A stretch of 64,000 nucleotides of DNA, taken from NCBI RefSeq assembly GCF_003334405.1, contig NZ_QOWM01000002.1; one strand, 5' to 3'. Numbering within the stretch: position 1 is the stretch's first letter; each line of letters starts with the position of its first letter. This document shows, piece after piece, positions 52,328 to 56,887 of this stretch. Under the pieces are notes generated by a model. The model saw only the letters and a program-made list of their open reading frames with translations, had not been told where the DNA came from and did no database searches. Source of the DNA: Escherichia coli (GTDB lineage: Bacteria; Pseudomonadota; Gammaproteobacteria; Enterobacterales; Enterobacteriaceae). A program made the translations under genes and the position numbers.

Positions 52328-54112
52328 ATGTGGTCAGACAAAGAGTCATCAGAAGACTACCTAAATTTTGGTGAAGTATCTCAGTTAGCCGTGGATGTAC
52401 TTACCACGAAAGATATGTTACCAGTATCTATCGGAATTTTTGGAAACTGGGGGGCAGGTAAATCCTCTCTGTTAAAACTGATAGAGCAAAAACTTGAGCA
52501 AGACGACAAAGATTGGATTGTTATCAATTTTGACTCTTGGCTCTATCAGGGGTACGACGACGCCCGTGCCGCACTTCTTGAAGTCATCGCTACAGAATTG
52601 ACAAAAGCTGCTGAAGGTAATTCTACCCTTATATCAAAAACTAAGAGACTCCTTAGTCGAGTTGATGGTTTTAGAGCTATGGGATTACTAGCTGAGGGTA
52701 CAGCTTTAATGGCAGGATTACCTACTGGCGGTTTGCTTTCTAGGGGGATTGGTGCATTAAGAAATATCACCGATGGCATCCAGAGCCAGGAAGAGTATGA
52801 GGCTTTAGGCAATATAGCTAAAGAAGGTAAAGAAACTGCTTGTGGTTTGATTAAACCACAAACAAAAAAAAGCCCCCCTCAGCAGATTGATGCCTTTCGT
52901 AAGGAATATGGGGAAATTCTAGAAGAACTTGGAAAGCCACTCATTGTGGTAATAGATAACCTAGACCGCTGTCTCCCTGCCAATGCTATCCATACACTTG
53001 AAGCTATCAGGCTATTCCTTTTCTTGACTAATACAGCCTTTATTATTGCAGCAGATGAGGACATGATTCGCTCTTCTGTGGCTGATTACTTCAAAGGGGC
53101 ATCACAGCGCCATCAAATAGATTATCTGGATAAGCTAATCCAGGTTCCTATTCGGGTGCCTAAGGCTGGGGTCCGTGAGATCCGTTCGTATCTGTTCATG
53201 CTTTATGCCATTGAACATGGCTTAGAAGGCGAAAAAATAACTATGCTCCGTGAGGGCTTAGAGAAGGCGTTACAGCAATCCTGGAAAGATGAACCAATCT
53301 CACGTCAGGAGGCCTTAAAAATGACTGGTGAAGCGGATGATAGCAACCTCGCGCTGGCGTTTGCGCGTGCTGACCGTATTGCTCCCATTTTAGCCAACTC
53401 TCCAATTATTCATGGTAATCCCAGGATCGTTAAACGCTTGTTGAATGTTGTGAAAATGCGATCTCAAATTGCGAAGCGACGAGCAATGCCTTTGGATGAA
53501 GCAATTATTACTAAGCTAGTAATTTTTGAACGCTGTGTTGGAGTGGATGGCACCGCTGATTTATATCATCTCGTGGATATTGAACAAGGTGTTCCCCAGA
53601 TACTTAAACAGCTTGACGATAATGGCGGTCAAATACCTACTGATGCACCAAAGACATGGACTGATAGTCCAACGACTAAATCTTTCATCAGTCAATGGGC
53701 CCAACTTGAACCTCGTCTTGGTGGGATTGACTTAAGGGCCGCCATATATCTGTCCCGAGAAACTATGCCAATAGGTGCATATGTGGTTGGTTTATCGCCA
53801 TCTGGACGGGAAGTACTAAATGCACTAATTGAATTGAAAAACACTAGTTCTCCTACAGCAGAAAACCTTTTGAAAGCACTTCCTCGTGAGGAGCAAATAC
53901 CTGTAATGGAAGGTTTAATTAACCAGTTACGGCAGGTATCAGATTGGGATCGTAAGCCCAGAGGCTTTTCCGGCGCATGTCTGTTGGCCCGCTACTCAAC
54001 AGATGCAGCCAGCATATTAATTCGTTATCTACAGGAATTACAGTTGGGGATGAAACGACCAGCGTGGATGACTGCAGCATTAAAAGATGAACAATGGAAT
54101 AAGGACGCTTAA
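52328..54112 (+). CDS. KAP-family P-loop NTPase (QatA-like)
   Basis: Walker A (GNWGAGKSS) and Walker B-like (LIVVIDNLDRC) motifs in a 594-aa protein. First gene of a four-gene overlapping operon. Confidence 0.75.
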   Translation: MWSDKESSEDYLNFGEVSQLAVDVLTTKDMLPVSIGIFGNWGAGKSSLLKLIEQKLEQDDKDWIVINFDSWLYQGYDDARAALLEVIATELTKAAEGNSTLISKTKRLLSRVDGFRAMGLLAEGTALMAGLPTGGLLSRGIGALRNITDGIQSQEEYEALGNIAKEGKETACGLIKPQTKKSPPQQIDAFRKEYGEILEELGKPLIVVIDNLDRCLPANAIHTLEAIRLFLFLTNTAFIIAADEDMIRSSVADYFKGASQRHQIDYLDKLIQVPIRVPKAGVREIRSYLFMLYAIEHGLEGEKITMLREGLEKALQQSWKDEPISRQEALKMTGEADDSNLALAFARADRIAPILANSPIIHGNPRIVKRLLNVVKMRSQIAKRRAMPLDEAIITKLVIFERCVGVDGTADLYHLVDIEQGVPQILKQLDDNGGQIPTDAPKTWTDSPTTKSFISQWAQLEPRLGGIDLRAAIYLSRETMPIGAYVVGLSPSGREVLNALIELKNTSSPTAENLLKALPREEQIPVMEGLINQLRQVSDWDRKPRGFSGACLLARYSTDAASILIRYLQELQLGMKRPAWMTAALKDEQWNKDA

Positions 54113-54864
54113 TGGGAACATCACAATCAAGTAAAGGTCCAGGAGGTGGCTCTCCGCTGGTTCCACCATGGGCTGATGATCAGCCACAGCAACCGTTACC
54201 CTCGCCGCAAGAAAGGAGGTTTGCGCCATTTCGAGAATCGTTGGGAAATGCGGTATCAAATGGAAATCGAGCAGATTTCAGAAAAGCCATAGGGCACTAC
54301 GCGCGAAAAGCCTCCGGAGGGAGCAGTAACGCTGCTCGGCGATTAGGGAGTGTCACGCAAGCTGGGGCCGAATTATTTGGGGCTTTAGTGGGAATGCCTT
54401 CGGCTCCCGGAGAACCAAGCATCGATTTGGGCAGTTTGGCAAGCCTTCCATGCGAAATAGCAATATCAACTATTGCTCAAGCTTTAACATCACAGGATGG
54501 TGACTCAGAAAAGATCTGTGCGGCCATGAACCATGCTTTAGTGGAGGCTCTTGATGGCGTAGAAATTTTCGATCCTCAAAAAATAACTGATGGTGTGATT
54601 GTTGACACAATGATTGGTTATCTAGCGGAAAGTATTTTCCTTCAGATGGTAATGGATTCTAATAGGGCATGGAACAAAGCAGATACACCTTCAAAGGCAA
54701 TTCATGCAGAAATTGAACTCCGGGAATTGATTAAAGTTGTTGTTGATAAACATATGGCACCAAAACTTGCCGGTAACATAAGATCGTTCACACGAAACCA
54801 AATGGTAAAAATTGAACGTCAGGCCATTATTGAGGCCTGGCAAGAATGGGAGGCATACCAGTGA
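54112..54864 (+). CDS. Hypothetical protein (QatB-like position)
   Basis: 250-aa ORF; its start overlaps the upstream stop (TAATG). No motif I recognise. Confidence 0.55.
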   Translation: MGTSQSSKGPGGGSPLVPPWADDQPQQPLPSPQERRFAPFRESLGNAVSNGNRADFRKAIGHYARKASGGSSNAARRLGSVTQAGAELFGALVGMPSAPGEPSIDLGSLASLPCEIAISTIAQALTSQDGDSEKICAAMNHALVEALDGVEIFDPQKITDGVIVDTMIGYLAESIFLQMVMDSNRAWNKADTPSKAIHAEIELRELIKVVVDKHMAPKLAGNIRSFTRNQMVKIERQAIIEAWQEWEAYQ

Positions 54865-56165: not shown

Positions 56166-56887
56166 GCATCGATATGCACTGTCATCTAGACTTATATCCT
56201 CGGCCAGACCTCGTGGCTGAAGAAAGTAAACGTCGAGGGACTTATATTCTGTCGGTGACAACAACACCTAAAGCATGGCATGGTACTTCTTTATTGGCTA
56301 AAGAAAGTCAACGAATCCGAACTGCTCTTGGGCTACATCCTCAAATCGCGCATCAAAGATCGCATGAGTTAGACCTGTTTGATTCATTGCTTTCGGAAAC
56401 TAAGTATGTAGGGGAAATAGGGCTTGATGGTGGACAGGGATTTAAAGAACATTGGGATATTCAATTGAAAGTGTTCCGACACATTCTCAACAGTGTAAAT
56501 CGGGCTGGTGGCAAGATTATGACTATCCATAGTCGGGGAAGTGCATCAGCGGTGCTTGATGAGATTGAAAATATCGATGGGGTGGCAATATTGCATTGGT
56601 TCACTGGAACACCTAAGCAGCTTGAAAGGGCAATTGATTTAGGATGCTGGTTCTCAGTGGGGCCTGCTATGCTCGATACAATAAAGGGTAAGGCCTTAGT
56701 TTTGAAAATACCCAAATCACGCATTCTTACAGAAACAGATGGGCCATTTGCTAAGTTTCGTAATGACCCACTAATGCCATGGGATAGTGGGATTGCAGAG
56801 AAACAGTTAGCCGCATTATGGGGGATTAGTCAGATGGAGGTTAATGCTCAGCTAGTTGATAATTTTAAGGTATTATGTACATCATAA
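56162..56887 (+). CDS. TatD-family metal-dependent hydrolase/DNase (QatD-like)
   Basis: N-terminal HCHLD metal-binding motif and an EIGLD block; 241 aa. Overlaps the upstream gene by ATGA. Confidence 0.85.
   Translation: MSIDMHCHLDLYPRPDLVAEESKRRGTYILSVTTTPKAWHGTSLLAKESQRIRTALGLHPQIAHQRSHELDLFDSLLSETKYVGEIGLDGGQGFKEHWDIQLKVFRHILNSVNRAGGKIMTIHSRGSASAVLDEIENIDGVAILHWFTGTPKQLERAIDLGCWFSVGPAMLDTIKGKALVLKIPKSRILTETDGPFAKFRNDPLMPWDSGIAEKQLAALWGISQMEVNAQLVDNFKVLCTS

Follow-up and report, generated by a model that had tools for sequence, protein, structure and literature searches.

We analysed a 64,000-nucleotide stretch of an Escherichia coli genome (contig NZ_QOWM01000002.1 of assembly GCF_003334405.1; hereafter the window) and found that its positions 52328-56887 very probably hold an intact qatABCD operon with translational coupling, which belongs to the compact "short" clade of Qat anti-phage systems, lies on a decayed pheV island and would act through the QatC-QatB mechanism described below. 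That the locus is Qat is held with high confidence, and the chemistry proposed for QatC and QatB with moderate confidence. The system is already known: it has been catalogued and crystallised, and this same locus has already been assayed against phage. A preliminary description of the stretch, made from the letters alone, had proposed a QatABCD-like defence operon here; both its observation and its interpretation are correct, and the feature is a textbook member of Qat.

Identity and architecture of the operon

The operon comprises four genes on the plus strand, of which qatA (52328-54112; 594 amino acids) encodes a KAP-family P-loop NTPase, qatB (54112-54864; 250 amino acids) the presumed protein substrate of QatC, qatC (54846-56165; 439 amino acids as annotated) a QueC-like PP-loop ATP pyrophosphatase, and qatD (56162-56887; 241 amino acids) a TatD-family metal-dependent DNase. 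The list of open reading frames (ORFs) confirms that the genes overlap or abut at these positions, as had been described: qatA and qatB share 1 nucleotide (TAATG), qatB and qatC share 19 nucleotides, or 4 (GTGA) if QatC starts at GTG 54861, and qatC and qatD share 4 (ATGA). The gene content and order (KAP NTPase, QatB, QueC-like, TatD-like, co-oriented in one operon) are those of Qat. A search with defence-system profiles, which the preliminary description had proposed as a check, matched all four proteins; the PADLOC Qat profiles cover each of them at full length with E-values from 0 to 6e-97, which rules out a chance match. Together with NCBIfam profiles and the RefSeq annotation of identical loci, these matches back the family, composition and order that had been proposed, and each of the motifs named earlier (GNWGAGKS, SGGLDS, the Cys cluster of QatC and HCHLD) was found. 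The AT-rich setting holds as well, with a GC content of 40-45% over the operon against ~50-55% in the chromosomal flanks.

QatA matches PADLOC PDLC02210 at 1133 bits over residues 1-593 of 593, PDLC02209 at 336 bits over 3-585, and Pfam KAP_NTPase at 1.8e-54. It is a KAP P-loop NTPase with Walker A (GNWGAGKS, residues 39-46) and Walker B (IVVID, with Asp210) in place and with homology over its full length, the C-terminal domain included. In Gao et al. 2020, QatA of strain NCTC9009 is mutated at this Walker B residue, Asp210, which the window QatA carries too. No sequence relatives of QatA were found in the PDB. On the NCBIfam QatA model it scores 385.8 bits, under the 600-bit cut-off, because this model, like that for QatB, evidently represents the long clade of Qat loci described below. 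At the other end of the operon, QatD reaches 322 bits on its PADLOC profile, 331.5 bits on the NCBIfam QatD model (cut-off 230) and 255 bits against the TatD-family PDB chain 9xsn_A. Its HCHLD motif occupies residues 6-10, and the metal ligands expected of a TatD-family nuclease are intact: H6, H8, H59 and D193 were checked by script, and the translation shows E85, H123 and H145.

QatB scores 429 bits on PADLOC QatB PDLC02212 and 72.2 bits on the NCBIfam QatB model, under its 100-bit cut-off, and its homologues bear the recent Pfam family PF28083 "QatB". The protein consists of a disordered tail of ~30 amino acids, which contains the Pro and Trp positions, and an all-helical body. Its N-terminus reads MGTSQSSKGPGGGSPLVPPWADD, with the motif pattern MGTSQS...SPLVPPWADD. 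Across 33 short-clade homologues, M1, G2, T3, S4, Q5, S6 and P18 are invariant and W20 is nearly so; their counterparts in P. aeruginosa and NCTC9009, the MGTS motif with the Pro/Trp positions, are essential (PMC13279940; bioRxiv 2025.11.03.686418). An AlphaFold2 model of QatB has a predicted local distance difference test score (pLDDT) of 86 and a predicted template modelling (TM) score of 0.81, with residues 1-18 and 23-26 under pLDDT 50. The sole significant PDB matches of the model are the QatB chains 9y01_A and 9y02_A (probability 1.0, TM scores 0.59 and 0.68, identity 16-17%), which is the helical QatB fold.

QatC scores 460.6 bits on its PADLOC profile and 408 bits on the NCBIfam QatC model, over the cut-off of 280. 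Its alignment to the crystallised chains 9zee_B and 9vlk_A covers residues 46-434. The features that set QatC apart are present, namely the PP-loop SGGLDS (residues 160-165), a four-Cys zinc site, N- and C-terminal extensions, and a Thr-x-Thr pair in place of the Tyr-x-Asp of QueC. The zinc ligands C333, C343, C346 and C349 are arranged as C-x9-CGxCxxC-xx-RR, in a loop 10 residues shorter than that of the long clade. The Thr pair, located by hand in the alignment, is Thr277/Thr279 and is followed by His-Pro. Asp65 (Asp63 in NCTC9009) is kept, as are D77-x4-R82-x6-W89-x-R91, RTRSLNF, ENG and P-x4-TK.

The true start of QatC is probably GTG 54861, giving a protein of 434 amino acids, and the annotated ATG 54846 likely lies 15 nucleotides too far upstream. 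Of the 20 short-clade loci surveyed, 19 have an ATG or GTG that overlaps the stop of qatB (A/GTGA), and in the remaining one (locus L008) an ATG directly abuts the stop. In the window, a GGGAGG Shine-Dalgarno sequence stands 7 nucleotides 5' of GTG 54861. The start is placed there because the overlapping start is conserved and preceded by this Shine-Dalgarno sequence, while ATG 54846 is not conserved: it falls within the codons for the conserved Glu-Trp-Glu of QatB, and other loci have GTG or TTG in its place.

The same locus has been cloned and assayed as "E. coli 46-1 qatABCD", with its native promoter, in a study of nuclease-containing defence systems (bioRxiv 10.1101/2022.06.16.496414). 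Both cloning primers (its Table S7) match the window with zero mismatches, at 52009-52029 on the plus strand and 57524-57543 on the minus strand. The amplicon is reported as 5635 bp against 5535 bp in the window, the two being compared through their primers; the gap probably reflects the copy number of a 9-bp repeat (52048-52108) inside the amplicon. The clone gave ~10-fold protection against T4 with unmodified cytosine, T4(C), and blocked neither wild-type T4 nor hmC-T4. The QatD substitutions H59A or D193A, whose numbering coincides with the window QatD, abolished defence completely, and purified 46-1 QatD showed dose-dependent DNase activity (bioRxiv 10.1101/2022.06.16.496414). Phage protection on transfer of the locus, the absence of which the preliminary description had named as grounds for dropping Qat, is thus on record.

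Since this active clone begins at 52009, the promoter of the operon itself probably lies within 52009-52327, a segment that includes the intergenic leader on the plus strand (52197-52327). A consensus promoter scan returned fewer promoter-like sites than shuffled controls, with no convincing one in 52197-52327 or beyond qatD, and neither promoter nor terminator could be located by consensus scanning of the operon surroundings. In an Rfam scan for RNA elements in the leader and operon, the gathering score was reached only by the tRNA of the window; a match to IS009, at 20 bits against a cut-off of 117, was noise from the tandem repeat.

At a threshold of at least 99% identity over at least 80% of its 4.56 kb, qatABCD was found in 243 of the 5426 complete E. 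coli genomes, or about 1 in 20; CFT073 and APEC O1 are among them, and strain BS74R-D matches the 4.56 kb at 100% identity. The four ORFs are 99.8-100% identical to their counterparts in hundreds of genomes. RefSeq names qatC and qatD at identical loci, and newer records name QatB as well. Most RefSeq records label the short-clade QatA "KAP family P-loop NTPase fold protein" and QatB "hypothetical protein", because their NCBIfam scores (386 vs 600 and 72 vs 100 bits) miss the cut-offs; the short clade is under-annotated in RefSeq as a result.

Two clades of Qat loci and the characterised systems

We scanned one genome per species with the QatB alignment and followed this with BLAST of all ORFs, which together with three loci fetched earlier gave 37 related loci from many phyla. 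The A-B-C-D order occurs in all 37, the overlapping junctions are conserved, and the loci fall into two well-separated clades. The short clade, to which the window belongs, comprises 20 loci with identities to the window of 59-91% for QatA, 51-92% for QatB, 55-86% for QatC and 57-89% for QatD; its hosts are Enterobacterales, other Gammaproteobacteria, cyanobacteria, Riflebacteria and Desulfuromonadales, and its protein lengths are almost fixed at 594, 250, ~434-439 and 241 amino acids. The long clade, of the NCTC9009 and P. aeruginosa type, comprises 17 loci and is 30-38% (QatA), 23-31% (QatB), 33-38% (QatC) and 48-58% (QatD) identical to the window. With its shortened zinc loop and QatB tail, the short clade may use another QatC substrate than the long clade. 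In the distant short-type locus L008, from a metagenome assembly, qatA (5223-7000) is split into ORFs of 267 and 319 amino acids and the other three genes are intact; the split marks a frameshifted pseudogene or else a fault of the assembly.

The characterised systems belong to the long clade. QatABCD of NCTC9009 (Gao et al. 2020; structures 9vlk/9vll and the Zhang-lab QatBC structure) is made up of the four genes found in the window, in unchanged order, and shares with it the MGTS start of QatB, the SGGxDS, four-Cys and Thr-x-Thr features of QatC, the TatD ligands and Asp210 of QatA. Its QatC (9vlk_A) is 36.6% identical, with 465 amino acids against 439 and a zinc loop of C-x19-C against C-x9-C in the window, and its QatB has 282 amino acids against 250 and is matched by phmmer at only 35 bits. 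In the P. aeruginosa system (PMC13279940; 9zee/9zef and 9y01/9y02), QatC (9zee_B) is 37.5% identical and carries T278/T280 where the window has T277/T279. Its QatB shares the N-terminal MGTS...VPxW-DD and the fold with the window protein (TM score 0.59-0.68, 17% identity in the structural alignment), with a tail of 65 amino acids against ~30 in the window; QatBs of the crystallised type span 282-287 amino acids against 250. The E. coli accession given in PMC13279940, WP_038416547.1, is not among the accessions of the window proteins.

A further likeness is to Cap9 of the type IV systems of cyclic oligonucleotide-based anti-phage signalling (CBASS), which, according to Wassarman et al. 2025 as cited in the Qat literature, holds the Gly2 N-terminus of CdnD in its active site and deazaguanylates it. 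Cap9-CdnD, a QueC-fold enzyme with the Gly2 N-terminus of its partner, is the mechanistic template for QatC-QatB, with the difference that Cap9 works on 7-carboxy-7-deazaguanine (CDG) and keeps the Tyr/Asp that binds it, whereas QatC carries Thr/Thr at these positions and shows no activity with CDG. The locus itself is not a type IV CBASS: a Cap10 gene of the tRNA-guanine transglycosylase (TGT) type is absent, the neighbouring CD-NTase starts MSHREL without the MGGS glycine motif, and QatC matches QatC profiles rather than a minimal Cap9-type protein.

The QatC-QatB chemistry and its alternatives

In the mechanism that we favour, QatC, a PP-loop ATP pyrophosphatase of the QueC fold, would bind QatB 1:1, and once Met1 is removed, Gly2 of QatB would place its free amine within the active site of QatC. 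QatC would adenylate a carboxylate substrate with ATP and transfer it to the QatB N-terminus, by analogy with the deazaguanylation of CdnD by Cap9. The QatB tail would also tether QatD, a TatD-type Mg-dependent DNase, and the state of the tail would control QatD or another output, while QatA, a DNA-binding oligomeric KAP NTPase, would broaden or tune the response. The transfer reaction, its substrate and its way of stopping phage are parts of the model that we infer. All sequence features required by the transfer model occur in the window proteins, and the model was adopted because these features fit and because the QatD nuclease residues are required in this locus type. Three structural studies bear on it (PMC13279940; PMC13376578; bioRxiv 2025.11.03.686418): QatB binds QatC in a 1:1 complex; the E. 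coli structures have the N-terminus of QatB, from Gly2 on, in the active site of QatC; defence is lost with the QatB G2D substitution, with deletions in the tail and with mutants in the PP-loop or Thr residues of QatC; the QatB tail binds QatD too; and QatA is a DNA-binding 7-8-mer that, with QatD, widens the phage range. QatB and QatC alone suffice against lambda-vir (PMC13279940).

Several points weigh against this mechanism. A modification on QatB was never detected by any group, and neither was ATP-pyrophosphatase activity of QatC, with or without CDG (PMC13279940; PMC13376578; bioRxiv 2025.11.03.686418). The structural and most of the genetic work was done on the long clade, whose QatC is ~37% and QatB ~25-30% identical, and its transfer to the window would hold by homology. 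QatA and QatD were dispensable against lambda-vir in both the P. aeruginosa and the E. coli constructs (PMC13279940), and the reports disagree here, as QatD was required against T4(C) in this locus type; protection by the locus type was moreover weak and narrow in its sole published test (bioRxiv 10.1101/2022.06.16.496414). The central question of the field, with three structural groups at work, is which group QatC attaches to QatB and how this stops phage; the present copy makes the problem no more tractable and raises no new question.

Conceivably, Qat could act by abortive infection, with QatB as a membrane-damaging effector and QatC, QatA and QatD as its regulators. The suggestion arose from the countering of Qat by rIIA/rIIB homologues of phages, the rIIA/B-like genes 84 and 85 of phage Bas63 being needed to escape the system (bioRxiv 2024.10.10.617714), and the sufficiency of QatB-QatC against lambda-vir would agree with it. 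We consider it very unlikely, as QatB is soluble and helical in three crystal structures (PMC13279940; PMC13376578; bioRxiv 2025.11.03.686418), the model of the window QatB lacks long hydrophobic helices and matches soluble structures only, and growth curves of the 46-1 clone favour direct targeting over abortive infection (bioRxiv 10.1101/2022.06.16.496414).

The preliminary description had rightly called QatC QueC-like, and had taken this to imply a 7-deazaguanine-type nucleotide chemistry, which is too strong. In its fullest form, QatC would be a real 7-deazaguanine enzyme (preQ0/queuosine or Dpd-like) in a restriction-modification-like system, with the host DNA modified and unmodified phage DNA cut by QatD. 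The QueC fold, PP-loop and zinc site of QatC speak for such a system, which was proposed in the PhageMaP preprint (bioRxiv 2024.10.10.617714), and defence by this locus type was seen solely against T4 with unmodified cytosine. We regard it as highly improbable, since QatC is not a real QueC: on the canonical QueC model TIGR00364 it scores 21.3 bits against a cut-off of 150.3, with the PP-loop region alone aligning, and the CDG-binding Tyr/Asp of QueC and Cap9 are missing, with Thr277/Thr279 in their stead. Neither the genuine queuosine enzyme nor the queDEF partners that the preliminary description had named as evidence against Qat were encountered; no ORF for queD, queE, queF or a TGT/DpdA-like transglycosylase was found at 48.9-62.5 kb of the window or in the annotated identical island of BS74R-D. 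Among the homologues, a long-clade QatC fails to complement a queC deletion (PMC13329287), long-clade QatC has no CDG-dependent ATP pyrophosphatase activity (PMC13376578; bioRxiv 2025.11.03.686418), and CDG was not seen in crystals soaked with it (PMC13279940; bioRxiv 2025.11.03.686418). Purified QatD, for its part, cuts modified and unmodified T4 DNA equally in vitro (bioRxiv 10.1101/2022.06.16.496414). Current evidence points to a modification of the QatB N-terminus by QatC and not to 7-deazaguanine nucleotide chemistry.

That the operon is a non-functional relic is scarcely credible: the island is heavily eroded (IS66, IS4 and Ag43 fragments, a truncated glcE) and no clear consensus promoter was found, but the four ORFs are intact and nearly identical across hundreds of genomes, their coupled junctions are kept, and a matching fragment with the native upstream 319 nucleotides was active when cloned.

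The upstream gene, the neighbouring CBASS and the island

Directly 5' of qatA lies an ORF of 376 amino acids (51066-52196, plus strand) with 32% GC. It contains a perfect 9-bp tandem repeat, TTGCTGAGG in 6.8 copies at 52048-52108, which encodes (AEV)n, is 288 nucleotides longer in BS74R-D and varies in copy number between strains. The ORF has no match in Pfam or PHROG, and its C-terminal ~75 amino acids alone resemble PADLOC PD-Lambda-4_B/Avs8B (E = 3.7e-6). Relatives of it occur in Enterobacterales and Aliivibrio only, most of them labelled "partial", and in two contigs viewed the contig ends inside the gene. We rejected the ORF as a required fifth Qat gene, because the active published clone nearly lacks it (merely its last ~190 nucleotides are included), distant short-type Qat loci are without it, and a homologue in Xenorhabdus occurs by itself, with no Qat beside it. 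The Providencia and Enterobacter copies adjoin type I restriction-modification genes and integrases, on contigs that end inside the gene.

A full-length homologue of PD-Lambda-4_B, which is Avs8B and is reported to be dispensable for Avs8 defence, stands directly 5' of qatA in Pectobacterium, Rahnella, Brenneria, Photorhabdus, Citrobacter and E. coli JX2, and in E. coli 23AR1101 another is found downstream of a Qat remnant. In the coordinates of the respective loci, these homologues occupy 4169-5089 (L006), 4170-5090 (L009), 4124-5089 (L010), 4101-5126 (L011), 4180-5112 (L012), 9001-9933 (L044) and 9001-9915 (L045). Of the copies upstream of qatA, three scored 590-613 bits on the PADLOC profile, and the others are 81-98% identical to these. 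The partner Avs8A is absent from the six loci with the gene upstream of qatA, in which three different kinds of genes lie further upstream, and the canonical Avs8A-Avs8B locus of E. coli D5 is without Qat. The simplest reading is that the Avs8B-like genes belong to the backbone of related integrative elements or flank their hot spots. It is unlikely that the Avs8B-like and upstream genes are instead a conserved partner of Qat, as regulators or sensors rather than hitch-hikers, and the active 46-1 clone lacks the upstream gene; if they were, Qat of the Enterobacterales would count five genes, and Avs8B would be given a function.

Downstream and convergent with qatD, the second defence-like module that had been noted beside the operon proved to be an intact CBASS on the minus strand (57440-59351), with a CD-NTase of 442 amino acids (PADLOC Cyclase PDLC00796, 587 bits) and a two-transmembrane (2TM)/SLATT effector of 191 amino acids (PADLOC 274 bits; NCBIfam SLATT_6 224 bits). 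It is assigned to type I because the CD-NTase starts MSHREL, with no Gly2, and pairs with a 2TM effector. The segment 50352-59673, comprising a VasL fragment, a hypothetical gene, qatABCD and the convergent CBASS, is common to CFT073 at 99.4-100% identity at a site other than pheV, whereas in BS74R-D the match continues to the window end (64000) and the site is pheV. The sole interruption is the copy number of the tandem repeat, and the segment, Qat and CBASS included, therefore moves as one module. The island thus carries two intact defence systems as one mobile module; the model uropathogen CFT073 is one of the ~250 complete E. coli genomes that share it at an identity of at least 99%.

The stretch that separates qatD from the CBASS effector, an unannotated, GC-rich spacer of ~300 bp (57040-57400), is single-copy and found only with the Qat-CBASS module (250 genomes). 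It has no Rfam match at E of at most 1 and gave fold z-scores of -1.4 and -1.6; a likeness of its hairpin GAGCCGGAUGUG...CGCAUGUCCGCUUC to domain V of a group II intron was not supported by Rfam or folding. Beyond the CBASS lie remnants of IS66 and IS4 transposases (59486-60917), a P4-type integrase (61081-62406, minus strand) and a tRNA-Phe (62541-62616, minus strand). The placement on a pheV island made earlier stands, because the integrase adjoins this tRNA and yqgA/speC adjoin it in the identical BS74R-D record. With reference to the K-12 gene order, the pheV island presumably replaced the chromosomal segment from glcE to pheV. At its far side, glcD (46697-48196) is complete, and glcE (48196 to ~48980) is cut at position 270 of 358 of its profile and directly adjoins an internal piece of an Ag43-type autotransporter (48982-50301, minus strand).

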